64,000 nt of DNA from Woeseiaceae bacterium (GCA_035304285.1 DATGQI010000036.1:4446-68445), one strand, 5' to 3'. Counted from the stretch's first letter, positions 2,836 through 61,104 are shown. Numbers and translations are program-made. Notes: generated from the sequence alone by a model not told the origin.

Positions 2836-3346
2836 CCGGGTTGCCCTGGCGGTCGTCAATCTCGACTTCAGGCGCCACCGGGTCGACCGCGTCGAGGTAC
2901 ATCGCGCGGGCGACCCTTAAGGTCCTGGCGCCGGGATTCAGCTCCTCGCCCTTTACCAGGTCCCGGTGTGCCTTCTCGTACTCAGCCGTATTGATATAGA
3001 TCACTGCACGATTGTTGTAGGCACGCCAGCTCTGGTCGTCCCGCTCGATCAGCAGTTCGCAATACTTCAAAGCTTCCTGGTAGTTTTCGAGCATGATGTA
3101 GCCTGCGCAAAGATTCGACAGCGCTGCTTCTTCCTCTCGTGCGCCCTGCGCAACCTTCAAGCCCCGAAGCGTAAGCTCGACACCCTCCTTCGCCCGGCCG
3201 GCCAGCAGCTGTTTCGCGCCATCCTGGAGGTCGGGATTACGCGGGCCGATGACCGTGGTTGGCCCGTCCTGCATTCGGTCAGCATTCTGAGCGAAACCCT
3301 GAGGCCCCACCAAGCTTAAGATGACCATCAAGAATAATCTGCCCAT
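2813..3346 (-). CDS. TPR-repeat secreted protein
   Basis: Start moved to the internal Met (MGRLFLMVILSLVGPQGFAQ signal peptide). TPR-like helices are present (ALSNLCAGYIMLENYQEALKYCE, AYNNRAVIYINTAEYEKAHRDL). Confidence 0.6.
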   Translation of the reverse strand: MGRLFLMVILSLVGPQGFAQNADRMQDGPTTVIGPRNPDLQDGAKQLLAGRAKEGVELTLRGLKVAQGAREEEAALSNLCAGYIMLENYQEALKYCELLIERDDQSWRAYNNRAVIYINTAEYEKAHRDLVKGEELNPGARTLRVARAMYLDAVDPVAPEVEIDDRQGNPDGDDQER

Positions 3347-3410
3347 GATTCGCACCCTCTGTTCCGCCGGCCACAGCTGCCGAAACCCAGAAAGCGTTGG
3401 CCGACCCAGA

Positions 3411-4292
3411 TCAGACAAGGTTCTTCCTGAAAAATTCAAGGGTCCTCCGCCAGGCCAGTTCCGCCGCGGCTTCATCGAAGCGTGGCGTAGTATCGTTGTG
3501 GAAGCCGTGACTGGTGTCTTCGTAGGTATGTTCCGTGAAGGTCTTCCCGTGTTTCTCGAGGGCGGCCTTGTAGGCTGGCCATCCGGCGTTCACGCGCTCA
3601 TCCTGCGAAGCGTGATGAATGAGCAGCGGGGCGCGAATATGGACGACCTCCTCCGGCGAAGGCTGGGTACCGTAGAACGGTACGGCCGCCGCGAGGTCCG
3701 GTACGCGCACTGCGATCATGTTCGACACCCAGCCGCCAAAGCAAAAGCCGACGCAGCCGGCTTTTCCACTACACCACTCGTGCGCCTGCAGGTAGCGCAG
3801 TCCTGCGATGAAGTCCTCGAGCATCTCGTCCCGGTCGCGCCGGGCCTGGAGTTCGCGCCCTTCGTCGTCCGTCCCCGGGTAGCCGCCAAGAGGCGTCAGG
3901 GCATCCGGTGCAAAACCCACGAAGCCTCCAACGGCCACGCGACGCACGACATCTTCGATGTATGGGTTGAGCCCCCGGTTCTCATGGATCACGAGAACGC
4001 CAGGCAACCCGGTGTTCCGCAATGACGGCGCGGCGAGGTACCCGCGCATTTCCCCGGCACCGTCAGGGGATGCGTAATCCTCGTAACGTACTTCGATAGA
4101 GTCGTCGCCGGGGTCGACCTGCTGCGCCAGTGCGTAGTTCGGGCTCAGGCTGCCTAGAAGCGCCGACGCGGAAACTCCGGAGGCGGTATATGCAGCCGCG
4201 CGTTCAAGAAAGTCACGGCGCGTTATCATGCCGTGGGCGTAACGATCGTACAGGTCGAGAACGCGTCGATCGTAAGTCTTCTCGTCAGTCAT
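3411..4292 (-). CDS. dienelactone hydrolase family protein with Tat-type signal
   Basis: 293 aa. Twin-arginine motif TRRDFLERAAAY. DLH-type core VLVIHENRGLNPYIEDV...GCVGFCFGG...HGF. Confidence 0.8.
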   Translation of the reverse strand: MTDEKTYDRRVLDLYDRYAHGMITRRDFLERAAAYTASGVSASALLGSLSPNYALAQQVDPGDDSIEVRYEDYASPDGAGEMRGYLAAPSLRNTGLPGVLVIHENRGLNPYIEDVVRRVAVGGFVGFAPDALTPLGGYPGTDDEGRELQARRDRDEMLEDFIAGLRYLQAHEWCSGKAGCVGFCFGGWVSNMIAVRVPDLAAAVPFYGTQPSPEEVVHIRAPLLIHHASQDERVNAGWPAYKAALEKHGKTFTEHTYEDTSHGFHNDTTPRFDEAAAELAWRRTLEFFRKNLV

Positions 4293-14819: not shown

Positions 14820-15548
14820 TCAGCGGATCGCGAACGTCGCGTGAATCTGCACGCTGAAACTCTGTTGGCCTGGCGAGATGCTCGGTGCAGCCGCCTCCGC
14901 CATATCGTAACTGCGCGACATCATCGGCCGCGGGGGACCGCCACCGTAGGACGTGGAGAGCGACAGGACTTCACCGAGCTGAACTCCCGCGAGACGGGCG
15001 AGAGACTCCGCGCGTGCCCGTGCGTCAGCCATCGCGGTCTCACGAGCCTCTTGTTCCAGGCCTTTCGTATCCTTGACGCCAAACTGGATGCCGTGGATCG
15101 AGTTTGCGCCTGCGTTGATTACCGCCGCCAGCACATCGCCGATCTTGTCGATGTCGTCGATCTTCACGTTTACGACATTCGACACGCGGTAACCGGTGAT
15201 GCGATTCTGTCCCGGCTCCTGGTAATTCTGCTCTGCCCATATGCTGTAGTTGGATGTCTGGATCCTCTCCGGGTCGATGCCCTGTTCATCCAGCGCTGCC
15301 ATGATCTTCTCGATGATCGACTCGTTCTCGCGCGTTGCCTCTACGACAGTCTCGGCCAGGATCTGGACACCCGCGCTCACGGAAGCCTGGTCGGGCGCCC
15401 CCGAGGCCTCACCCTCGCCCGTCACCGTGATGCTGCGCACTTCTGTGAAAGTGTTGTGTTGATCCGTACATGCGGCCACGGACATTGCCGCCAACAAAAT
15501 CGTTGCGTTTAGCGTTGCCGGCCACTTGATCGGTCGTGATGTTTTCAC
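14820..15548 (-). CDS. SIMPL-domain (DUF541) periplasmic lipoprotein
   Basis: GTG start at 15548 is preceded by AAGGAG. Lipobox LLAAMSVAAC. SIMPL-like body (ITVTGEGEASGAPDQASVSAGV ... GQQSFSVQIHATFAI). Confidence 0.75.
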   Translation of the reverse strand: MKTSRPIKWPATLNATILLAAMSVAACTDQHNTFTEVRSITVTGEGEASGAPDQASVSAGVQILAETVVEATRENESIIEKIMAALDEQGIDPERIQTSNYSIWAEQNYQEPGQNRITGYRVSNVVNVKIDDIDKIGDVLAAVINAGANSIHGIQFGVKDTKGLEQEARETAMADARARAESLARLAGVQLGEVLSLSTSYGGGPPRPMMSRSYDMAEAAAPSISPGQQSFSVQIHATFAIR

Positions 15549-15727
15549 GTTACAGCTCCTTTTTGTTGACGCACCACCGGGCGCCCGCATTTCGAACGCT
15601 CCGGAAGGAGCGCGCATTCTAGTCGATGTTCGTAGCGCATCCCCGATCGCGCGATTTGACAATTTCCCGTGCAATCAGGTTCCTGGCAATTGACACTGGC
15701 GAATGCCCTGTGCAACGATCCTTCCTC

Positions 15728-15812
15728 GTTTGATAAAGGCACACCTTTCGAAAGGAAGGGCCGCAAAGCCACCGGTCTAAGGGAATATCCTATGACAGCG
15801 GGGTTGCCGACA
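15728..15812 (+). promoter_or_regulatory. c-di-GMP-I (GEMM-I) riboswitch aptamer, copy 1
   Basis: AAAGGCACACCUUUCGAAAGGAAGGGCCGCAAAGCCACCGGUCUAAGG...GACAGCGGGGUUGCC matches the GEMM-I core as in Vc2: GGCAAACC..UCGAAAG..GGACGCAAAGCC.CCGG.CUAA...UAGCGGGGUUACC. Includes a GAAA tetraloop hairpin (CCUUUC/GGAAGG). Confidence 0.85.
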
Positions 15813-15979: not shown

Positions 15980-17347
15980 ATGTCAGTCAAAGCCATAAGA
16001 CTTCGCGATACCGGGAAAATCGGCCGGCGAACCCAGCCCAGGCCATGCACCATCCGCCCGACCAGCTTAAAGCAACTGAGACAGTGTCTCGAGCGAGGCT
16101 CAGCATACCTGGCGCCGTTTCGTCCGATGGGTGCCAATAGCTCGTCCACGGATTGCACGTCCGCGACGGCGGGCACGGTCATCGATATGACCGGATTTGA
16201 CGAAATCATCAACATAGATGCCTACAACGATACCGCTGTCGTCCAGGCAGGCGTTCGCCTGGGGAGGCTGGCGAGCGCCCTTGCAGAGCACGGCCTCGAG
16301 CTTGCGGGAAGCCATGACCTCATGAGCCGAACCGTCGGCGGGGCGGTGGCCGGCGGCTGCATCGGCCCCTCGATCTCCAGCGACGGCGCCTACTTCGCCT
16401 CGCAAGTGCTGAGCATGAAGCTCGTTACCCCTTCCGGGCGCCTGCTGGCGCTCTCCCGCGAGAAGCAGAACCTGCTGAATGCGTTCCGACTCAGTTACGG
16501 AATGCTCGGGGTAATCTACGAGGTGACGCTGAAAGTGCGGCCGATCAGCCCGTTTGCAGTGTCGCACCGGCGCTGTTCGATTGCCCAATTCGCCGCCGCG
16601 GCGGAAAAACTGTCCCGGACCGACATCGGCATCAAGTTCTACCTCCTGCCGTTTCGCGATTGCGCGTACCTCGACCTGCGGCGGTACAGCCGCGAAGCCA
16701 CCTCCACGCATAAGATCCCGTGGAAGCTGAAGGACTGGGGGGAAAGTACAGTGCTGCCGCAGGTCTTCAAATCGTTGAACCGCATCGTCCCGGTAGCGGG
16801 CGTGCGTTACCGCATCATTGACGAGATCAGCAAGGTCACGCAGAACATCGTCAACAACAGGCTCGTGACGTCCGGCAGCAACTCCACTGCGCTCGCGAGC
16901 GGAGATCACGCGAAGCACCATGGTGAACGGCTCAGGTATTCCACCTGGATGTTCCCCGCGGCTGATTTTTCGATCGTCGTCCAGGCGTACAAGGATTTTT
17001 GCCTGCGCATCAGGAACGAAACCGGATTCCGCTGCGATATGCCGACTGTCGGGTTCAGGTTGTGCCGCGACCAGTCGGCCTTGCTTTCACCATCCTTCGA
17101 TGAACCGATGTTCGTATTGCGCGCCGTGTCTACGCAGGCGCGTGGTTGGGAAGACTTTGCCATCGATTTCGGTGAGTTCGCCCAGCACTGGGGAGGGATG
17201 CCGTTCTTCAACCAGACACGCGGGCTGTCGCCTGGGTACGCAGGACAGGTGTTCGGCAGCAGGCTCGACTTCTTCAAGCGGATGCGACGGCGCATCGATC
17301 CCGAAGACAGGATGATGAACCCGTTCTTGCTGCAGTATTTTCTCTGA
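15980..17347 (+). CDS. FAD-binding (PCMH-type) oxidoreductase, ALO/DprE1-like
   Basis: Start at the internal Met, preceded by GGGAGAG. Has an FAD_binding_4-like segment (...VVQAGVRLGRLASALAEHGLELAGSHDLMSRTVGGAVAGG...) and a C-terminal oxidase-type domain ending ...RIDPEDRMMNPFLLQYFL. It is the only gene downstream of riboswitch 1. Confidence 0.75.
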   Translation: MSVKAIRLRDTGKIGRRTQPRPCTIRPTSLKQLRQCLERGSAYLAPFRPMGANSSSTDCTSATAGTVIDMTGFDEIINIDAYNDTAVVQAGVRLGRLASALAEHGLELAGSHDLMSRTVGGAVAGGCIGPSISSDGAYFASQVLSMKLVTPSGRLLALSREKQNLLNAFRLSYGMLGVIYEVTLKVRPISPFAVSHRRCSIAQFAAAAEKLSRTDIGIKFYLLPFRDCAYLDLRRYSREATSTHKIPWKLKDWGESTVLPQVFKSLNRIVPVAGVRYRIIDEISKVTQNIVNNRLVTSGSNSTALASGDHAKHHGERLRYSTWMFPAADFSIVVQAYKDFCLRIRNETGFRCDMPTVGFRLCRDQSALLSPSFDEPMFVLRAVSTQARGWEDFAIDFGEFAQHWGGMPFFNQTRGLSPGYAGQVFGSRLDFFKRMRRRIDPEDRMMNPFLLQYFL

Positions 17348-17372: not shown

Positions 17373-18647
17373 TCATGAGGAATGAGCAATGGCCGCCGGC
17401 TTTCGGGGAACTTCCTTCTCACGCGATGCAGCTAAGGCCGCGCGTACGTCCTGCCCGCTCGGGTACTGGTACACGTGCAGGCCGAACTCTCCGACGATCG
17501 ACAAGATGTGGTCGAAGATATCGCTCTGTATACCTTCGTACTCCACCCACGCCGTCGTGTTGGTGAACGTGTAGATCTCGATCGGCAGCCCCTGGCTGTC
17601 CGGGGCGAGCTGGCGCACGATCATGGTCATCTGCTGGTTGATCTTCGGATGGTTTTTGATGTAATTCAGGATGTACGCGCGGTAAGTGCCGATGTTCGTG
17701 AGGCGCCGCAGGTTCACGCCCTCCCTGTCTTCGTCACTCAGGCTCGCCGCATAATCCCGGAGCTGCTCTTCTTTCCGGTCGATGTACTCCCGGAGCAGCG
17801 CGAAGCGCCGGAAGCGCTGCACTTCCTCCTCGGTCAGGACCCGAATGGATTCGATGTCGATGCGTATGGAGCGCTTGATCCGGCGCCCGCCTGATTCGGA
17901 CATGCCGCGCCAGTTGCGGAACGAATCGGAAATCAGCGCGTGCGTGGGAATGGTCGTGATGGTCTTGTCCCAGTTCTGCACCTTGATGGTGTGCAGCGCC
18001 ACGTCTATCACGTCACCGTCGGCGTCGTACTTCGGCATCTCTATCCAGTCGCCGACGCGCACCATGTCCTGCGCCGTGAGTTGCACGCTCGCAACGAGCC
18101 CGAGGATCGTGTCCTTGAATACGAGCATCAGCACGGCGGTCATTGCGCCGAAGCCACCAAGCAGGAGCGTCGGCGACTTTTCTATGAGCGTGGCGACAAT
18201 GAGGATCCCGCCGACGATATAGATAACCAGCTGCGCCAGCTGGACGAAGCCCTTGATCGGCTTGTGGCGGGCAGCCGGCTTCAGCGAGTAGATGTTGTTG
18301 ATCGCGCTAAGTGCAGCCGCGAGGCTGCGCACGACCATCAGGATGACGGTCGCCATGGCGACGTTGCGGATCAGGCTGACCCACACATCCGGCAGGTCCG
18401 GGATCAGCCGAACGCCGCTGTAGATGATCAGGGCAGGCACGACCAGCGCGAACCGGCCGAATACCTTTTCTCCGGAGAGCGCGCCATGCCAGTCCTCGCG
18501 CGTATGCCGTGTGACGACGTTGGAGGCACGGGTCAGGACAAGCCTGGTGATGAAGTGCGCAGTGACGGCGGCAAACAGCAACAGTAGCAGTGCAGTCGCC
18601 GACATCAGTGCCGGGTGTATTTCGTTTAGTTGTTCAATCATCGGCAT
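17373..18647 (-). CDS. ybdG: MscS-family miniconductance mechanosensitive channel (YbdG/MscM-like)
   Basis: 424 aa. Long collinear similarity to E. coli YbdG as I recall it (GDWIEMPKYDADGDVIDVALHTIKVQNWDKTITTIPT...SGGRRIKRSIRIDIESIR...MIVRQLAPDSQGLPIEIYTFTN). Confidence 0.8.
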   Translation of the reverse strand: MPMIEQLNEIHPALMSATALLLLLFAAVTAHFITRLVLTRASNVVTRHTREDWHGALSGEKVFGRFALVVPALIIYSGVRLIPDLPDVWVSLIRNVAMATVILMVVRSLAAALSAINNIYSLKPAARHKPIKGFVQLAQLVIYIVGGILIVATLIEKSPTLLLGGFGAMTAVLMLVFKDTILGLVASVQLTAQDMVRVGDWIEMPKYDADGDVIDVALHTIKVQNWDKTITTIPTHALISDSFRNWRGMSESGGRRIKRSIRIDIESIRVLTEEEVQRFRRFALLREYIDRKEEQLRDYAASLSDEDREGVNLRRLTNIGTYRAYILNYIKNHPKINQQMTMIVRQLAPDSQGLPIEIYTFTNTTAWVEYEGIQSDIFDHILSIVGEFGLHVYQYPSGQDVRAALAASREKEVPRKPAAIAHSS

Positions 18648-54234: not shown

Positions 54235-56457
54235 TCAGGAGGTATTGCGTTTCCGCTGGCTTTTCCGCTTCTGCTTCTGGTGCGACTCGATCGGCACAGG
54301 CATCGTCTTGCGGATCGGCGTAGCAGTCGGCCGTCCGATGTGGAAGCCCTGCGCAAAATCGATACCCAGACGCCCGAGCAGTGTGAAGGCCGCGCCTGGC
54401 TGTACGTATTCGGCGATGGTTTTCATGCCGGCGGCCCTGCCGATTTCACCGATCATCTTCACCATTTTCTGGTCCACCGGGTTGCGTACCAGGTCCCTGA
54501 TGAAGCTGCCGTCTATCTTGATGTAGTCCACCGGCAGTTTTTGCAGGTAACTGAAGGAACTGTATCCGGTACCGAAGTCGTCTAGGGAGACCTGGCAGCC
54601 GATCTCACGCAACCCTGCTATCTGCTTCTCAACGTGGTTCAGGTGCCGCATCGCGAGACTCTCGGTAATCTCGAAGGTCACACAGTCCGCAGGAACGCCC
54701 TGTCGCGCCAGCTGCGACATGACGAATGCGGTGAGGTTCTCCGCTTCGAACGCGTTGGCGGAAAGATTCAGCGCGAAGCGAAGGTCCGGCGCGTCCTGCC
54801 GGTATCTTGCAAGCTCGGCTATCGCCGTTTCGATGAGCCATGTGTCTATTTCCGCCATCAGCCCGAAACGGACCGCAGCCGGGAGGAATGCGTCAGGCGA
54901 AACCAGGTCACCGTTGTCGGCCTTCATCCGTAACAGTACCTCGTGGTGCGTTGTTTCACCCGTGGCTATGCATACGATGGGCTGGTAGCGCAGCATGAGG
55001 AGGTTATTGTCGATGGCCTCTCTCAGCTTGCTGATCCAGTTGACGTCAGCCGCCATCTGCTCAACGTCCCGTTCGGACATGCTGTGGAAGGCAAGCCGGT
55101 TCCGTCCCGAGGCTTTCGCCTCCCGACAGGCAATATCCGCCTGTGATATCAGATCGTCATGATCGAAGCGGTCGGAATCGATCATCGTGATACCGATGCT
55201 GCAATGCACATGGAAGATGTTGTCGTCCTCGACGTGCGCAACCTTGCGCAGGTCTTCCAGGATCGACTCCGCTAGCGCCTGTGCCGCCGGTTTCGAAACG
55301 CCGGTAGCAAGCACCGTAAACTCATCTCCCCCGAACCTGCCGACCGTTCCGATGTCGCCGACGCAGCTCTGTAGCTGGTCCGCGACCTTCCTGATCAGCC
55401 GGTCGCCCGCGGGATGACCACAGGTGTCATTGACGTACTTGAACTGGTCGAGGTCGATGAACAGCAGCGCGGCCCTGGTGCTCTCGCGCGCGACATTCCG
55501 TACTTCCCTGCGCAACTCTTCAACGAACCGGCGCCGGTTGAAGAGACCCGTCAGAACGTCATGGTTCGCCAGCCGGGAAAGCTTTTCGTTGCGTTCGCCA
55601 AGCGCCGAGGCTGTCGATGCAAGGGCCTCCACAATATCGGATATTTCCCGGTGCTTGGCGGGCTTGAACTCTACCGACAGGTTGCCTTTCGCCAGTTCGG
55701 CGATTGGCCTTTGCAGATCGGCAATGGGCGTCAGCGCGCTCAGCAGGCGCCGACGTCCGATCAGGCCGGACACGATCAACAGCAGCAGCAGCACACTGGT
55801 TGCGACCTTGATATTTGTCAAAAGCCTTGCGTGGAAGAAACCAAAGTCCAACTCGAGGCGGACGAAGCCGGCGAGACTCCTGGTACTCGGCACGTCACCC
55901 GCGGTCGGATCGAATCCGAAAAGGCCTTCGCCGCCGATAGATTCAGTCCAGATCGGGGCGAGAATCTCGAACGTGTGGGCGCTGAAGACGTTGCTGTTCA
56001 CGAGGTAAGGTTCGTTCGCACCGACCAGGTCGGATAAGCGAGCGAGCAAGGCATAAGAGACCGGCTCAGCCGGTACGCTGTGGTAAAGGCCGCTATCGAT
56101 GGAGTAGAACGGGCTGCCGTCTTCGTAGTAATAGGTGACCCTGTCAATCTCCGGATAACGTCCCACGAAGCTCTCCAGGCGCGGAATCACCTCGGCGTCG
56201 CGCTGCAGGTAAAGGGGCGCCCCGAGTTCGTTCAACTCGCCGGTCCACTGCAGCGCCCAGCGGCCGTAGTTATCCTGCAGCACCCACTGCCCGCCCCAGT
56301 AGAGGCCGCCGATTGCGAGGGCGCCGACTACCGCTGTGATCATGAGCTGAAGGGACAGGATCTCGTTGATCAGCAGGCGCTTGCCGCGGCGGTTTGACTT
56401 CCGTCGCGCCGCCAGCCTTGCGCGGTTTTGCTCCGGAAGTGGGGCGGTCGCAGTCAT
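54235..56457 (-). CDS. membrane-bound GGDEF-EAL protein (diguanylate cyclase/phosphodiesterase) with periplasmic and HAMP-like regions
   Basis: 740 aa with two TM helices. GGDEF motif RFGGDEFTVLA. EAL domain (EVLLRM, DDFGTGYSSFSYL). ATGA overlap with the upstream lipoprotein gene. Confidence 0.9.
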   Translation of the reverse strand: MTATAPLPEQNRARLAARRKSNRRGKRLLINEILSLQLMITAVVGALAIGGLYWGGQWVLQDNYGRWALQWTGELNELGAPLYLQRDAEVIPRLESFVGRYPEIDRVTYYYEDGSPFYSIDSGLYHSVPAEPVSYALLARLSDLVGANEPYLVNSNVFSAHTFEILAPIWTESIGGEGLFGFDPTAGDVPSTRSLAGFVRLELDFGFFHARLLTNIKVATSVLLLLLIVSGLIGRRRLLSALTPIADLQRPIAELAKGNLSVEFKPAKHREISDIVEALASTASALGERNEKLSRLANHDVLTGLFNRRRFVEELRREVRNVARESTRAALLFIDLDQFKYVNDTCGHPAGDRLIRKVADQLQSCVGDIGTVGRFGGDEFTVLATGVSKPAAQALAESILEDLRKVAHVEDDNIFHVHCSIGITMIDSDRFDHDDLISQADIACREAKASGRNRLAFHSMSERDVEQMAADVNWISKLREAIDNNLLMLRYQPIVCIATGETTHHEVLLRMKADNGDLVSPDAFLPAAVRFGLMAEIDTWLIETAIAELARYRQDAPDLRFALNLSANAFEAENLTAFVMSQLARQGVPADCVTFEITESLAMRHLNHVEKQIAGLREIGCQVSLDDFGTGYSSFSYLQKLPVDYIKIDGSFIRDLVRNPVDQKMVKMIGEIGRAAGMKTIAEYVQPGAAFTLLGRLGIDFAQGFHIGRPTATPIRKTMPVPIESHQKQKRKSQRKRNTS

Positions 56458-57554
56458 AAGCGGCCGTTCGGGGCACGGGTATGGCTGCCGATGGCGAGGG
56501 TTCTCGCGGCATTACTCGACCGATCGGATTCGCGGACGTTCAGGTTGCGCAGCGGAGTCAGGTCCGGCACAGAATCACCGTTGCCCTCCACTACCTGCTG
56601 CGCCACCGACACCGCCATTTCGGCGATATCGGATTCGTCGGCGGCGGTGCTCAGCGCAACCCCGAGTTCCAGCAAGGCTTCGTTGAACACTGCGATACGT
56701 ACGCCGTGGCGGTCGGCGACGTCGACCATCATCCTCAGGACAGGAATGCTCAGGATTCTATTGTCGGGAAACAGCCAGAACCCATCGATATCGGGCGCCA
56801 TCCGCTTGAAAAGGTAAAGCGTCTCGCGATCGGAGGCCGCGACCTGGTACTGAAATGCGAGTTCGTTCATGGCCGTCGCGGCTTCCGCTTCCGCTATCAG
56901 TGACTCGTGACCGTCTCCGAGAATCGCGCCGATACGGCGTAGTTCGGGATCGGCCTTGAGCCATTCCTGGACCTGGAGCGACAACGGCGGGATTGCCGCG
57001 ACACCTTTGACAGGCACCCTGACACCTTTCCCCGGCTTGAAGTTGAAGACCTGGCAATAGACCACCGGCAGGGTGGACCACGTCATGGCCGCCTGGGCCG
57101 CAGAGTGACCGATGGCGATCACGATCGCTGCCCCCGATTCCGCGACGCCGGCGAACGCCTCCTCGGGCGACTGGCTCTTGTCGGACAGGTCGTAGACCAG
57201 CGGCCGGTCGAGGATCTGGCCGAGTTCCTGCGCCACCCGGTCGAACGACAGCGAACGTCCGCTCAGCACGATTGCAGCCTTCGCATCGAATTGCTTCGAT
57301 GCCTCCTTCGGCGGCGGTTCCGGTTCCTGCGCGGGCGGCGGTTCAGGCTGCTCCGGAACAGTGGTCTCCGGTTGCGGGGCGGGTTCGGCCTCCGGAATCG
57401 ACACATCGGGAGGTTCCTCGACGGAAGGTATCCCCGCGCAACCGGCCATCGCAGTTACGAGGCACAGAAGAAGGAAGCGCACGGGCGACTGTCGCAGGCG
57501 CCCGTTTCGTCGTTTGCACGATGAGGCGCTCGACAGTCCGGTTTCCTGTGGCAT
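56454..57554 (-). CDS. lipoprotein with ABC-type substrate-binding-like fold (putative sensor partner of the GGDEF-EAL protein)
   Basis: Lipobox LVTAMAGC. Pro/Glu-rich linker (EPAPQPETTVPEQPEPPPAQEPEPPPKE). Alternating beta-alpha body resembling ABC_sub_bind/BMP-type proteins. The family call is tentative. Confidence 0.55.
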   Translation of the reverse strand: MPQETGLSSASSCKRRNGRLRQSPVRFLLLCLVTAMAGCAGIPSVEEPPDVSIPEAEPAPQPETTVPEQPEPPPAQEPEPPPKEASKQFDAKAAIVLSGRSLSFDRVAQELGQILDRPLVYDLSDKSQSPEEAFAGVAESGAAIVIAIGHSAAQAAMTWSTLPVVYCQVFNFKPGKGVRVPVKGVAAIPPLSLQVQEWLKADPELRRIGAILGDGHESLIAEAEAATAMNELAFQYQVAASDRETLYLFKRMAPDIDGFWLFPDNRILSIPVLRMMVDVADRHGVRIAVFNEALLELGVALSTAADESDIAEMAVSVAQQVVEGNGDSVPDLTPLRNLNVRESDRSSNAARTLAIGSHTRAPNGRL

Positions 57555-57767
57555 CGCGACAAGCAGCTGCGCCCTTCGGCCGATTGAAGAACTTACCCAA
57601 GTGCTTGCTTCAGGGTCCGGGTATGTGTCTCAGATTAACCCTCGCGAGACGGATTGAGCGGATCACGCCGATATTATGTACAACCAGGAGCCGTTCGACG
57701 TGCTGCCGCAGATGGGCGACACCTTTTGTTGTTGACAGGTTGAATTGCGCTATGAAACGCTAGCAGG

Positions 57768-57852
57768 CGCTTGATAAAGGCACACCTTCCGAAAGGAAGC
57801 GTCGCAAAGCCACCGGTCTACGGTTTTTAACTACGACAGCGGGGTTACCAGC
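57768..57852 (+). promoter_or_regulatory. c-di-GMP-I (GEMM-I) riboswitch aptamer, copy 2
   Basis: AAAGGCACACCUUCCGAAAGGAAGCGUCGCAAAGCCACCGGUCUACGG...GACAGCGGGGUUACC. 47 of the first 50 core nt are identical to copy 1. The 3' strand ends 3 nt before the ATG at 57853. Confidence 0.85.
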
Positions 57853-59280
57853 ATGACCTTTTTATTGAACATCACCCCATGGCCTTTACTGTCGGCACTT
57901 CTGTGGATAGTGCTCGTCGTGACATCGCTATATTTCGCGCGGCCGACTGCGCACAAGGCGATTCGTGCGGCGGCCCTGGCGCTGCATCGCACGTTGAGGC
58001 TCGCCTCTATGGGCGTAAGGAAGGCGGAAGCGGGACTCGCACAACGCAATCGAGAGGTCTTGCTTGCTGCCGGGCGCGAAGCGAAGGAAAGAATCGTCGA
58101 GCGTGAGTTTGATCGTGTAAACGAAACCGTACGCAAGGATCTTGCAAACTACTCCACGCTGCATCGCGCGTTGAGCGAGTCGATCAATCGCATCGAGACG
58201 GATCACCAGGCGGCAGTCGACGTGCCGCCGGACCCACCGGGGTGGGTGAAAGCCGTCGAAGCTGTTGCGAAAATTGATTCCCGTGAAGGCAGGGTCGGCA
58301 TTGGAAACGTGCTGACTGACATACACCGCTCGCTGGTCAAGGCGCACCAGGAGGCAATGGTTGCGTATCGCGAGGCCAGTGCGGACCGTCATGCCTACCT
58401 CAGGAAGATGCGTCCCGAATGGCGCCAGATCCAGCAGACGCTGGGGCAGGTCGGCAAGAACGTCGACAGCCTGCTGAGCCGCTCCGTCACCATCGATCGC
58501 CACATGAAGGATTACGAGGACATCATCAGCGGCCACGACCGCTCTGTGTCCGTGCTGTCGTCCTCATCGCTGGTGTACTTCTTCGTGTCGGCACTCGTCC
58601 TCATGGTTGCCGCGGGCGGTGCGACGATCAACTTCTCCCTGATTGCCCGGCCCATGGCTGAAATGGTGGGAGGCACCAGCCTGATCGGAGGCTTCCGCAC
58701 CGCCGACATTGCGGCACTCGTGATCATCATGGTCGAGATTTCGATGGGACTGTTCCTGATGGAATCGCTTCGGATCACGCGGCTGTTTCCGGTCATCGGC
58801 GCGCTGCCAGACAAGGTCCGGGTGCGTATGATCTGGATCACTTTCACGATCCTGCTGATGCTGGCAACAGTCGAAGCGGGGCTGGCCTATATGCGCGAGG
58901 TGCTGCTGCACGACGAACTCGCGACCAGTGCGCTATTGCGCGGCGACGTGAGCGACGGCCTTACCGGCCAGTACCTCTGGATTACGACGGCCGCGCAGAT
59001 GGGCATGGGATTCATCCTGCCTTTCGCGCTGACGTTCGTCGCGATTCCCCTTGAGACCTTCGTCCATTCGCTGCGAACCGTGCTTGGCCTCGCCGGCATA
59101 GGCTTACTTCGGCTCACGGCGCTGCTGCTGCGTGTACTGGGGAACGCCTGCCGTTATCTCGGCTCGCTGGTCGAGCAACTGTATGACCTGCCGCTGTTCG
59201 TGCCACTGTGGCTCGAGTCGCGCTACGGCGATCTCGGATCGAAATCCAGGAGCGGCTCATTGCGGGAGGCGCGGACGTGA
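57853..59280 (+). CDS. uncharacterised polytopic membrane protein (riboswitch-controlled)
   Basis: 475 aa. N-terminal TM helix (PLLSALLWIVLVVTSLYF). About 200 aa of charged helical region. At least 5 C-terminal hydrophobic helices. I recognise no family. Confidence 0.7.
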   Translation: MTFLLNITPWPLLSALLWIVLVVTSLYFARPTAHKAIRAAALALHRTLRLASMGVRKAEAGLAQRNREVLLAAGREAKERIVEREFDRVNETVRKDLANYSTLHRALSESINRIETDHQAAVDVPPDPPGWVKAVEAVAKIDSREGRVGIGNVLTDIHRSLVKAHQEAMVAYREASADRHAYLRKMRPEWRQIQQTLGQVGKNVDSLLSRSVTIDRHMKDYEDIISGHDRSVSVLSSSSLVYFFVSALVLMVAAGGATINFSLIARPMAEMVGGTSLIGGFRTADIAALVIIMVEISMGLFLMESLRITRLFPVIGALPDKVRVRMIWITFTILLMLATVEAGLAYMREVLLHDELATSALLRGDVSDGLTGQYLWITTAAQMGMGFILPFALTFVAIPLETFVHSLRTVLGLAGIGLLRLTALLLRVLGNACRYLGSLVEQLYDLPLFVPLWLESRYGDLGSKSRSGSLREART

Positions 59281-59915
59281 GAAAACTTCTTGGCGCGCTG
59301 GCAGCCGTCGTGCTGCTCGGCTGCACCCAACCGACCCCGGGCAACACCGGCGTATACATGCTGCTCGACACATCCGGTACATATCGGGAAGAGCTGCAAA
59401 AGGCGGAACAAATCATCCGCTACACGCTGTCCAGGCTGGACGCGGCGGACACATTCGCCGTGGCTCGCATAGACACCGGCAGCTTCAGCGAGAAGGACAT
59501 CGTGGCCAAGACCTCCTTCGACGACCGCCCCAGCACGATCAACCGGCAAAAGCGCCTGTTCGCGGAGCAGATCAGTACATTCGTCAGCGATACCGAATCC
59601 TCGCCCTACACCGATATCACAGGCGGATTGTTGCAAGCGGTCGAGTTCCTGAATGAGAAAGGCTCGGGCAGGAAAGCGATCCTGATCTTCTCGGATCTGA
59701 AGGAAGACCTGCAGGACGGATACGTTCGTAACGATATTCCCTTCGACCTCGACGGCTTCGAAGTGATCGCATTGAACGTGACGAAGCTGCGCTCCGATAA
59801 CGTAGATCCGCGCGAGTACCTCTCGAGGCTCAGCACGTGGCAGGCGCGGGTGGAAAACTCGGGTGGCCGGTGGAGGGTGATCAATGATCTGGACGGCCTG
59901 GAGGGCCTGCTGTAG
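59277..59915 (+). CDS. lipoprotein with VWA-like domain (MIDAS-type DxSGT motif)
   Basis: GTG start overlaps the upstream stop (GTGA) and is preceded by GGGAGG. Lipobox AVVLLGC. VYMLLDTSGTY...YTDITGG...ILIFSDLKED follows the VWA beta-alpha pattern. Confidence 0.65.
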   Translation: MRKLLGALAAVVLLGCTQPTPGNTGVYMLLDTSGTYREELQKAEQIIRYTLSRLDAADTFAVARIDTGSFSEKDIVAKTSFDDRPSTINRQKRLFAEQISTFVSDTESSPYTDITGGLLQAVEFLNEKGSGRKAILIFSDLKEDLQDGYVRNDIPFDLDGFEVIALNVTKLRSDNVDPREYLSRLSTWQARVENSGGRWRVINDLDGLEGLL

Positions 59916-59952: not shown

Positions 59953-59976
59953 TCGCCCGCAGTGGCGGGTTCTTAC
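59953..59976. repeat. REP-like palindrome, family B (TCGCCCGCagtgGCGGGTTCTTAC)
   Basis: Located between convergent genes. Related to the 27579 and 34101 copies. Confidence 0.45.
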
Positions 59977-60030: not shown

Positions 60031-61104
60031 TCAGGCTCCCGGTTTCGTACCCGCAACGGTAACGCGGTCGCGCCCCTCGCGCTTGCTCTGGTAGAGAGCG
60101 GCATCGGCAAGTGCGACCAACTGCTCCGGCGATACGGAGTCGCCGCGATTGCGCATCGCAACGCCGATGCTGATGCTAGCCGGCACGGAACCACCTCGTG
60201 TACGTATGGGCAGCGAGCGCATACCCTCGCAGATGCGCTCGCCGAGGGCCCTGCAGCCTTTTTCGTCAATGTCTTGGACGATGACGAGGAATTCCTCTCC
60301 ACCCCAGCGGCAAACGATATCCTGCGGGCGCACCGAGGCGACGATTGAGCCGGCCACGCGGCGCAGCACCTGGTCGCCCACCTGGTGCCCGAACTGGTCG
60401 TTGACCTGCTTGAAGTTGTCGATGTCGGCGAGGCAGATGCCGAGGGAGTGGTTGTGCTTCTGTGCTTCCATCAGCGCCGAGCTCAGGAGATCGGTGGCGC
60501 CGCGTCGGTTCCAAAGCCGGGTCAGGGGATCAAACATAGCCTGCCGACGTGCTTCGCCGAGCTTGGTGACCATCGCCGACTGCGCGTTGCTCAACTCGAC
60601 AGAAAACAGCTCCCTTTGCGCCATGTCACCCAAATCGGTGAGCGTGGCGGCGAAATCGGGATCGGGTTTTCGCGGTTTCAGGTCCATGACGCAGAACGTG
60701 CCGATCGTTTTGCCTTCGGAATCCCGAATCGGGAAACCGGCGTAGAACCTGATTTTCGGAGCCTTGCAGACCACGGGACTGCTCATCATGTAGAGATCTT
60801 CAAGCGTGTCCGGAACCACCATTTGCCTGCCCTCGCGGATCACCTCCGCACAAAGGCTCTTACTCATCGGTAGCTCCGTGACCTGCCAGCCTGAAACGGA
60901 CTTGAACCACTGCCGGTCCCCGTGTACGACCGTGATTGCCGCGATGGGTACGTTCAGTGCGCGCCTCGCGAGCCGTGTGATGCGCTCAAAGCGTTCTTCC
61001 AGGGGAGTATAGAACGGATCCAGCGAATGCAGATTTGCGAGTTTCAGCGTTGCCGTACTCGCCACGGTACGGCTTAAAGCTGTCTCATCATCGAACCTGG
61101 ACAT
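60031..61104 (-). CDS. GAF-GGDEF diguanylate cyclase with I-site
   Basis: 357 aa. GAF-like N-terminus. RPQD (RxxD I-site) lies five residues before GGEEF. Confidence 0.9.
   Translation of the reverse strand: MSRFDDETALSRTVASTATLKLANLHSLDPFYTPLEERFERITRLARRALNVPIAAITVVHGDRQWFKSVSGWQVTELPMSKSLCAEVIREGRQMVVPDTLEDLYMMSSPVVCKAPKIRFYAGFPIRDSEGKTIGTFCVMDLKPRKPDPDFAATLTDLGDMAQRELFSVELSNAQSAMVTKLGEARRQAMFDPLTRLWNRRGATDLLSSALMEAQKHNHSLGICLADIDNFKQVNDQFGHQVGDQVLRRVAGSIVASVRPQDIVCRWGGEEFLVIVQDIDEKGCRALGERICEGMRSLPIRTRGGSVPASISIGVAMRNRGDSVSPEQLVALADAALYQSKREGRDRVTVAGTKPGA

Follow-up and report, generated by a model that had tools for sequence, protein, structure and literature searches.

A GEMM-I riboswitch-preceded operon of Woeseiaceae encoding an orphan membrane protein and a VWA lipoprotein, with a leader anatomy that suggests translational repression by c-di-GMP

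We analyzed a 64,000-nucleotide (nt) stretch of DNA from a Woeseiaceae bacterium (GCA_035304285.1 DATGQI010000036.1:4446-68445), hereafter the window, which carries a two-gene operon directly preceded by a cyclic di-GMP (c-di-GMP) riboswitch. All positions are window-based, and features lie on the plus strand unless the minus strand is stated. Gene 1 (57853–59280, ATG start) encodes an orphan inner-membrane protein of 475 amino acids (aa), and gene 2 (59277–59915, GTG start) encodes a 212-aa lipoprotein with a VWA fold and a metal ion-dependent adhesion site (MIDAS). We propose, with a probability of roughly 0.55, that in Woeseiaceae this operon produces a complex of a gene 1 core and a periplasmic VWA subunit, and that its synthesis is controlled by a translational OFF switch responding to c-di-GMP. 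The riboswitch is of a known class and the VWA fold is established, but gene 1 represents an orphan family and the combination is new. Our literature search found no paper describing the system, in agreement with a preliminary description of this DNA that presented it as undescribed.

The leader and the direction of c-di-GMP control

The segment upstream of gene 1 is a c-di-GMP-I (GEMM-I) aptamer (57769–57852), which matches RF01051 over model positions 1–87 of 87 with 72.1 bits (E value of 3.5e-12), compared with a gathering score of 35. The last base of the aptamer is the base directly preceding the gene 1 ATG. To follow this arrangement among relatives, we used the 80 best loci, one genome per species, with gene 1 at 72–91% identity; all of them come from Woeseiaceae or unclassified Gammaproteobacteria. 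A leader covariance model built from the orthologous leaders (R1) was used beside Rfam. The aptamer abuts the gene 1 ATG in 80/80 of these loci with R1, and 17 related loci from metagenomes show the same abutting position. The GEMM-I aptamer noted in the preliminary description is thus both a high-scoring match and a constant feature of the Woeseiaceae loci.

Alignment of 46 non-identical orthologous leaders revealed that the aptamer structure covaries. Pairing across the whole aptamer reaches 92% of the alignment cells, against 84% in shuffles, and none of 500 shuffles reached the covariation score of the structure. Compensatory changes occur in all six pairs of helix 3. In helix P1, the 5′ strand CUUG (57770–57773), the four nt just 5′ of the A-rich stretch ahead of GGCA, pairs with the 3′ strand CAGC (57849–57852), which occupies positions −4 to −1 of gene 1. 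Three of the four P1 pairs form in the window, and orthologues show the pairings GAUG/CAUC, AGUG/CACU, AAUG/CAUU, and GUUG/CAAC. Three of the four pairs are changed on both sides, with 70% of the P1 cells paired, and the pair 24–109 alone occurs in five types (AU 15, UG 7, CG 4, UA 4, and GC 2). The gene 1 ATG is invariant in 46/46 leaders. The bases that we take to be the ligand contacts, numbered as G20, A47, and C92 of Vc2, are the G that precedes the GC pair in AAAGGCA, the A of GCAAAGCC, and the two C residues following GGGGUUA, and they are invariant or nearly so in the aligned leaders.

The Shine-Dalgarno (SD) sequence of gene 1, GGGG (57841–57844), is located 8 nt ahead of the ATG, within the 3′ strand of the aptamer's second hairpin. 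It corresponds to alignment columns 99–102, which are paired with columns 64–68 in 32–46 of the 46 leaders depending on the pair, and it reads GGGG or GGAG in the orthologues. Across 79 orthologous leaders, the 3′ end follows the pattern GACAGCGG(G/A)GUUACC-NNN-AUG, and the distance from the aptamer ACC to the AUG is 3–5 nt in 79/79.

Two loci show differences. In locus L009 (approximately 4061–4163), the aptamer position equivalent to G20 is occupied by A (AAAAGCAC). A G20-to-A type change in GEMM-Ib riboswitches reportedly shifts the specificity toward 3′3′-cyclic GMP-AMP (3′3′-cGAMP), and the change in L009 could be such a shift or an assembly error. In locus L139, about 100 nt separate the aptamer (3337–3440) from the gene 1 match downstream of it, which starts at 3553 (66% identity). 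This spacing points to an extended N-terminus or to another layout of the leader.

Comparison of 72 aligned Woeseiaceae upstream regions revealed a conserved operon promoter. A −35-like TTGACA (57732–57737) is conserved at 70% or more, and 15 nt past this box lies the conserved motif TATGAAACGCT (57751–57761; family consensus cTGTGAAACnCT; 72 loci). A generic sigma-70 promoter scan left the operon promoter uncalled, because the downstream box is not TATAAT-like. The motif, of the form cTGTGAAAC(n)CT and found also in loci L001–L078, is conserved more strongly than is usual for a −10 box, and may be an extended −10 box or a half-site for a CRP/Clp-like TGTGA regulator. It ends 8 nt before the P1 5′ strand in the window and 8–14 nt before it across loci, a position suggesting that the transcript probably begins immediately 5′ of the aptamer. 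The conserved promoter leaves almost no leader upstream of P1.

The scan detected no intrinsic terminator after the aptamer. Nor was a conserved alternative pairing of the leader with the coding region found across 79 loci (mean z of +0.56), and the coding region was rejected as an anti-aptamer strand, a role suggested by the minimum free energy (MFE) fold, because this pairing is not conserved. As there is no terminator, no conserved competitor strand in the coding region, and almost no upstream leader, the anatomy indicates that the aptamer doubles as its own expression platform. The location of the SD within an aptamer helix and of the covarying P1 end at position −1, together with the absence of a terminator and of a conserved competitor strand and the near absence of a 5′ leader, make it probable in our judgment that c-di-GMP represses the translation of gene 1. 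In Vc2, ligand-dependent formation of P1 represses translation (PMC11705072), and designs of other riboswitch classes with the SD inside the aptamer are OFF switches (PMC3303485, PMC10622847). Our confidence in repression is limited by Vc1, which is closely related to Vc2 but acts as an ON switch (PMC11705072).

The opposite sign therefore has to be weighed for the same operon. Here c-di-GMP would activate translation, and the products would form an adhesion device of the high-c-di-GMP sessile or biofilm state. Such a switch could work, for example, if the leader misfolds about the SD and AUG as long as no ligand is bound, and the compact bound aptamer then presents the AUG. Consistent with such an arrangement, the ON switch Vc1/gbpA closely resembles the OFF switch Vc2, adhesion is a classic task of VWA/MIDAS domains, and in the MFE fold of the window leader, computed without constraints, the SD strand is paired with codons 8–15. 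This pairing with the coding region, however, is not conserved, and real downstream sequences perform slightly worse than codon-shuffled ones in the 79 loci. Moreover, the bound fold has the SD and positions −4 to −1 helical by construction, and the leader offers no upstream room for an anti-sequestor. We therefore regard activation as possible but doubtful, and the apparent repression anatomy argues against a biofilm or adhesion device induced by high c-di-GMP.

Under the favored OFF switch, bound c-di-GMP would stabilize P1 at positions −4 to −1 and hide the SD. Repression of gene 1 would then be passed on to gene 2 by translational coupling, so that the complex would be made when c-di-GMP is low. 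The coupling claimed in the preliminary description has a clear sequence basis: the gene 2 GTG at 59277 lies inside a GTGA overlap that holds the gene 1 stop codon (59278–59280), and a GGGAGG SD (59264–59269) is located within the 3′ end of gene 1, 7 nt before the GTG. The operon consists of a conserved promoter, a leader containing little beyond the aptamer, and two translationally coupled genes.

The orphan membrane protein and its VWA partner

When 1.84 billion cluster representatives were searched exhaustively with HMMER at E ≤ 1e-3, 749 representative clusters (50% identity) were assigned to the gene 1 family. The homologues are typically 460–500 aa long and align end to end down to approximately 27% identity, while the closest homologues of both proteins, at 90–95% identity, are from Woeseia and Woeseiaceae metagenome-assembled genomes. 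Sequence searches with gene 1 gave no match in Pfam, NCBIfam, PADLOC, or PDB, and Pfam searches with 76 diverse homologues returned scattered coiled-coil noise and no convincing family. The sequence and profile matches to PDB entries, reflecting transmembrane (TM) bias toward G protein-coupled receptors and borderline methyl-accepting chemotaxis protein (MCP) or coiled-coil similarity, were rejected as compositional. Foldseek comparison of the gene 1 model with the PDB also found no relative (best E value of 0.11; TM-score of ≤0.23). The earlier statement that gene 1 falls in no recognized family is borne out by all of these searches.

We derived the topology of gene 1 from the protein sequence with the positive-inside rule and from an AlphaFold2 (AF2) monomer model, which is wholly helical (pLDDT of 80 and pTM of 0.56). 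Hydropathy and AF2 place TM1 at aa 11–28. It is followed by two long antiparallel helices (aa 30–123 and 150–226) and by further helices at aa 229–271, 283–305, 320–363, 372–394, and 397–458. The part after the long hairpin comprises four clear TM helices and one Arg-striped amphipathic C-terminal helix; the single N-terminal TM helix of the preliminary description is thus retained, while its “at least five” C-terminal TM helices were slightly generous. The order of the protein would be a short periplasmic N-terminus, TM1, a cytoplasmic coiled-coil hairpin, the TM bundle, and a cytoplasmic amphipathic C-terminal helix.

Loop 3 (aa 307–325) contains five Lys/Arg residues, loops 2 (aa 263–283) and 4 (aa 347–377) contain two each and are acidic, and R30, right after TM1, is invariant. 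Because of these charge counts and the invariant R30, the hairpin and the Arg-striped C-terminal helix are predicted to be cytoplasmic, and the parts of gene 1 facing the periplasm would be its first 10 residues and two short loops only. By the positive-inside rule, the large helical domain would thus be cytoplasmic and not part of the envelope.

The hairpin (aa 30–226; 57940–58530) would be approximately 14 nm long (94 residues × 0.15 nm). Its invariant residues R65, N66, E79, R80, R84, D96, R179, H180, W190, and R191 are shared by homologues linked to gene 2 and by solo homologues, in whose loci gene 1 stands alone, and F86 is invariant as well. The tip of the hairpin, V-P-P-D-P-P-G-W (aa 124–131; 58222–58245), has invariant P126, P129, and W131, with P125 conserved in at least 90%, and is retained in the solo homologues too. 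Since invariant residues lie along the hairpin and at its tip, the hairpin appears to be more than a spacer. The four-helix TM bundle (TM2–TM5, aa 238–400; 58564–59052), assigned by hydropathy and AF2, carries E295 and E341 inside the membrane, and E304 where TM3 meets the cytoplasm; E304, G299, and T309 are invariant. In loop 2, the motif P267-M-A-E270-M-V-G273 (58651–58671) is predicted to be periplasmic and represents a candidate contact with gene 2.

Three known architectures were considered for gene 1 and rejected. A stator of the MotA/ExbB/TolQ/ZorA type has no Pfam, PADLOC, or fold match to gene 1, with MotA appearing only at an E value of 0.43 in the profile search against PDB, and it also fails on the partner, since gene 2, a VWA lipoprotein without a TM helix, is no MotB/ExbD/TolR-type protein with a TM Asp. 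An MCP signaling domain in the hairpin was dismissed because MCPsignal was found at E ≤ 0.01 in 0/76 members; the profile matches to MCP structures (E values of 0.014–0.022) are compatible with coiled-coil bias. A “1+5 TM” protein of the YhgE/Pip/EsaA type has no Pfam or NCBIfam match, and its large domain between TM1 and TM2 would have to lie outside the cell, whereas the charge counts place aa 29–237 of gene 1 in the cytoplasm.

Gene 2 begins with the signal peptide MRKLLGALAAVVLLGC, which contains a lipobox of the form [LVI][ASTVI][GAS]C, and the protein is therefore a predicted lipoprotein. Conservation was read from 50 aligned homologues, and motifs were counted more widely over 153. The Cys of the lipobox L-L-G-C16 (59313–59324) is invariant in the 50 sequences, while the rest of the signal peptide is variable; the lipobox is present in 145/153 homologues, and residue +2 is Thr, not Asp. 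The mature part is approximately 80% identical across Woeseiaceae. The MIDAS loop D31-T-S-G-T35 (59367–59381), in which Thr replaces the second Ser of DxSxS, occurs as DTSGT in 152/153 homologues covering all clades sampled, and the MIDAS residues D31, S33, T35, T112, and D140, a putative metal site, are invariant in the 50 homologues.

The AF2 model of gene 2 (pLDDT of 78) gave a best Foldseek match with an E value of 1.7e-7 and a TM-score of approximately 0.5, and among the 50 best of 100 matches at E ≤ 1e-3, essentially all are VWA domains, including those of ITIH1, TFIIH p44, NorD, integrin, CLCA1, and alpha2delta. The Pfam VWA_2 profile scored below threshold (E value of 0.0026; 18.8 bits against a cut-off of 27), NCBIfam TIGR03436 reached 17.5 bits against a cut-off of 81, and PADLOC had no match. 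Because the profile scores lie under the Pfam threshold, gene 2 is classified by its sequence as a divergent VWA member. Its whole mature part, approximately 195 residues, is predicted to be a single VWA domain with an intact MIDAS, so the VWA-type lipoprotein proposed in the preliminary description is supported by Foldseek and by the invariant Cys16 and MIDAS residues.

Conservation of the pair and a predicted contact in the periplasm

Gene 2 adjoins gene 1 in 79/80 Woeseiaceae loci, and the 80th is cut by a contig end. A metagenome scan for distant pairs, anchored on gene 2, showed gene 1 immediately upstream in every locus with upstream room, even at 35–63% identity, and no gene 2 without an upstream gene 1 was seen in 153 loci. 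The 4-nt start/stop overlap is present in 108 of 140 scorable loci and survives even in lineages whose gene 1 is down to approximately 35% identity. The neighbors of the distant pairs are unrelated housekeeping genes (DsbA, TetR, polyprenyl synthase, ABC-F, and RlmL), which indicates that the pair travels as a self-contained, co-conserved module of two genes. The pair is tightly co-conserved, a point that the preliminary description had proposed to check.

The riboswitch has a narrower distribution. With R1 and Rfam, the aptamer was confined to loci whose gene 1 shares about 66% identity or more with the window copy, that is, to Woeseiaceae-like loci. The pair is also present in more distant marine relatives without the riboswitch: no Rfam riboswitch family has a match in 14 loci that carry such remote pairs, nor in the two solo loci scanned (Reinekea L081 and Saccharospirillum L083). 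Because the pair occurs elsewhere without a riboswitch, the module appears to be older than its c-di-GMP control, which these distributions indicate to be a Woeseiaceae-specific addition. The association of GEMM-I with the homologues thus holds for all 80 Woeseiaceae loci and is lacking in the distant pairs, and “c-di-GMP output system” does not describe an intrinsic identity of the module.

Solo gene 1 copies occur in Reinekea marinisedimentorum and at five loci of the Saccharospirillum type, where they are located between yjeF and a gene for an FKBP isomerase. A profile search with distant members returned 23 proteins, all from the Saccharospirillum/Reinekea group. The metagenome contig L084 carries gene 1, gene 2 (63% identical to that of the window), and then FKBP. 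In the Saccharospirillum-type loci, a lipoprotein of approximately 463 aa (lipobox ...LSAC) is encoded divergently, directly upstream of the solo gene 1 (minus strand; L083, 4459–5850; L166, 1403–2797; also L167, L168, and L085). This protein has no Pfam or NCBIfam match and is absent in Reinekea. It was tested as a gene 1 paralogue and as a hidden VWA protein and is neither, being unrelated to both genes of the pair; possibly, it acts as a substitute partner of the solo gene 1.

Comparison of 20 non-redundant gene 2-linked gene 1 sequences with 9 solo sequences revealed that the positions conserved only in the linked proteins cluster in the two loops on the periplasmic side and at the outer ends of TM2 and TM4. 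Such linked-specific positions make up 10/15 of the conserved positions in the loops, versus 5/42 in the cytoplasmic hairpin (Fisher p of 1.2e-4). The clearest of these features are P267-M-x-E270-M-V-G273 and E341; the loop 2 motif is 85–100% conserved in linked homologues and has decayed in the solo clade. L084 is the linked gene 1 closest to the solo clade and shares 54% identity with a solo protein, compared with 36% with the window protein; it keeps the linked residues, which its solo relatives have lost. The decay of the loop motifs where gene 2 is missing, and their persistence in L084, argue that the two proteins touch in the periplasm through loops 2 and 4 of gene 1.

These data also bear on whether the two genes might merely be co-transcribed, with gene 2 encoding a free VWA lipoprotein of the periplasm or the outer membrane that is unrelated to the membrane protein gene 1. 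The occurrence of gene 1 alone in Saccharospirillum and Reinekea would fit such independence, but gene 2 never lacks its upstream gene 1 in the 153 loci, the 4-nt overlap survives where gene 1 is only about 35% identical, and the periplasmic loop motifs decay exactly where gene 2 is missing. Independent products are accordingly improbable. In the proposed complex, the two proteins would assemble in a fixed proportion, with the two short loops that gene 1 exposes to the periplasm serving as the seat of the VWA lipoprotein. Since gene 1 can occur alone, it would be the core, and gene 2 an obligate accessory subunit with a metal-dependent periplasmic binding site. The complex may serve envelope sensing or anchoring.

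A different function for the same two partners would be an ion channel or ion-coupled machine formed by gene 1, with gene 2 as an extracytoplasmic auxiliary subunit whose MIDAS ligates an acidic loop residue such as E270. Conserved acidic residues (E295, E304, E341, and E401) are indeed found within TM helices or at their ends, E270 in loop 2 is invariant only where gene 2 is present, and the fold matches of gene 2 include alpha2delta-1, Cachd1, and the CLCA1 VWA domain. Those matches, however, span all kinds of VWA, so the channel subunits among them have no specific weight; gene 1 has no sequence or fold likeness to a known channel or transporter, and the short lipid tether opposite the MIDAS face makes for an awkward geometry. 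We consider a channel a serious but less likely alternative, and ligation of the MIDAS metal by E270 is speculation.

A more specific elaboration of the proposed complex, which we rate as a long shot, is a hitherto undescribed type of transmembrane device in which the periplasmic MIDAS-VWA lipoprotein reports mechanical load or the binding of an envelope or surface ligand through the four-helix TM bundle to the 14-nm coiled-coil “antenna”, whose invariant Pro-rich tip recruits a cytoplasmic partner, making the complex an early surface-contact sensor produced at low c-di-GMP. If so, the device would be built in the planktonic or exploring state of low c-di-GMP, upstream of the switch to sessility.

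Several observations weigh against the proposed operon model. The sign of regulation is read from the leader anatomy by itself, with the ON switch Vc1 as a precedent, and P1 has only three pairs in the window and 70% of its cells paired across the alignment. The gene 1 topology combines the positive-inside rule with an AF2 monomer of pTM 0.56. The contrast between linked and solo proteins is essentially that of one solo lineage (Saccharospirillum and Reinekea), in which solo status was judged at the locus. In addition, the N-terminus of a VWA domain lies opposite the MIDAS face, and with a tether of approximately 9 residues here, a contact between the MIDAS and the loops is geometrically uncertain.

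Genomic context and comparison with known systems

The operon is flanked in the window by genes of c-di-GMP turnover. Upstream lie a HAMP-GGDEF-EAL gene (54235–56457, minus strand) and, next to it, a 366-aa lipoprotein-like open reading frame (ORF; 56454–57554, minus strand); downstream are a GAF-GGDEF gene (60031–61104, minus strand) and then a ZIP transporter gene. The GGDEF-EAL gene and the lipoprotein ORF adjoin the pair in about 20/80 Woeseiaceae loci, and the GAF-GGDEF gene does so in about 8/80. Because they are conserved in so few of the 80 loci, these flanks were rejected as system components and are regarded as neighbors by circumstance; the enzymes pointed out in the preliminary description are present but form no part of the unit. 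The 366-aa ORF, divergent from gene 1, has a lipobox (...AMAGC), a Pro/Glu-rich linker, and a 4-nt overlap with the HAMP-GGDEF-EAL gene. Pfam and NCBIfam searches with it gave no match, and it could be a periplasmic sensor partner of the diguanylate cyclase/phosphodiesterase. On the 3′ side of gene 2, a weak terminator-like hairpin, CCCGC-AGTG-GCGGG followed by TTCTT (59956–59974), was tentatively read from the sequence; it scored below threshold in the terminator scan.

The wider setting also bears on an anti-phage defense or conflict module, such as a Zorya-like membrane motor or a VWA conflict system. In overall appearance the pair does resemble such modules, combining a membrane protein that bears a very long cytoplasmic coiled coil with a VWA protein, and the profile search against PDB gave the MotA hint at an E value of 0.43. 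PADLOC, however, matched neither protein, and no MotB/ZorB-like partner, ATPase, or nuclease lies nearby. The pair is moreover a single-copy, syntenic core feature in 80/80 species and is situated among housekeeping genes rather than in a variable island, making a defense function very improbable.

A second c-di-GMP-I aptamer is present in the window at 15728–15811, scoring 82.5 bits with Rfam and 88.8 bits with the gene 1-derived model. It closely resembles the aptamer of gene 1 but, unlike it, is followed by a leader of about 170 nt and a gene for a 455-aa FAD_binding_4/ALO-like flavoprotein oxidase (15980–17347), which is an unusual cargo for GEMM-I. This riboswitch is flanked by an MscS-family channel gene (17373–18647, minus strand) and a SIMPL/DUF541 gene (14820–15674, minus strand). 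Weaker c-di-GMP-I-like matches occur elsewhere in some Woeseiaceae loci (L039, 3395–3500; L055, 8299–8386; L124, 4824–4958), and GEMM-I thus appears to be used repeatedly in Woeseiaceae genomes.

Woeseiaceae are benthic Gammaproteobacteria and rank among the most abundant, cosmopolitan bacteria of marine sediments. To our knowledge, almost nothing has been reported on their second-messenger physiology, and our literature search found no paper mentioning Woeseia together with c-di-GMP. The operon described here represents a family-wide, riboswitch-marked c-di-GMP target (80/80 species) with two uncharacterized products. It offers several handles: an orphan membrane-protein family of 749 clusters with an unusually long cytoplasmic coiled coil; a minimal VWA/MIDAS lipoprotein with a dedicated membrane partner, for which the comparative data point to a contact surface; and a GEMM-I aptamer that appears to be its own expression platform and could provide a clean natural system for translational control by c-di-GMP. 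Current ideas are not overturned by these results, and hypothetical genes preceded by riboswitches are common.

The coiled-coil hairpin of gene 1 resembles the cytoplasmic hairpin of MCPs in being a long antiparallel coiled coil that extends from a membrane anchor and bears a conserved tip. Unlike an MCP, gene 1 has no MCPsignal or HAMP match in Pfam (76 members), its tip reads PPxxPxW, and its hairpin is placed between TM1 and the four-TM bundle instead of at the C-terminus. Gene 2 shares with CglB, the VWA domain of PilY1, BatA/BatB, and NorD (with NorQ) a complete-MIDAS VWA domain in or facing the envelope, a likeness of fold only. CglB of Myxococcus is reportedly an outer-membrane VWA lipoprotein adhesin, with a lipid anchor like that of gene 2. 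In contrast to these proteins, gene 2 is a minimal single domain with a dedicated orphan inner-membrane partner, and no MoxR/NorQ-type ATPase, pilus, or Glt genes lie nearby. The CaV alpha2delta subunit and CLCA1, which acts on TMEM16A, likewise combine an extracytoplasmic MIDAS-VWA domain with a polytopic membrane protein, and this parallel is an analogy only.

The leader is most closely comparable with the Vc2 (tfoY) and Vc1 (gbpA) riboswitches of Vibrio cholerae, with which it shares the RF01051 class, the equivalents of G20, A47, and C92, the GAAA tetraloop hairpin, and the second hairpin. By its likeness to Vc2, formation of P1 would be expected to repress translation here too. Unlike either of them, the Woeseiaceae leader has no separate expression platform; in all 80 orthologous leaders, the SD belongs to the aptamer and P1 ends at position −1. 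Its cargo is unrelated to tfoY or gbpA. A like logic is found in the SAM-II, SAM-III/SMK box, and preQ1 classes, in which ligand-stabilized aptamer helices include the SD and ligand binding thereby blocks ribosome access directly (PMC3303485, PMC10622847); these classes differ from the present leader in ligand and fold.

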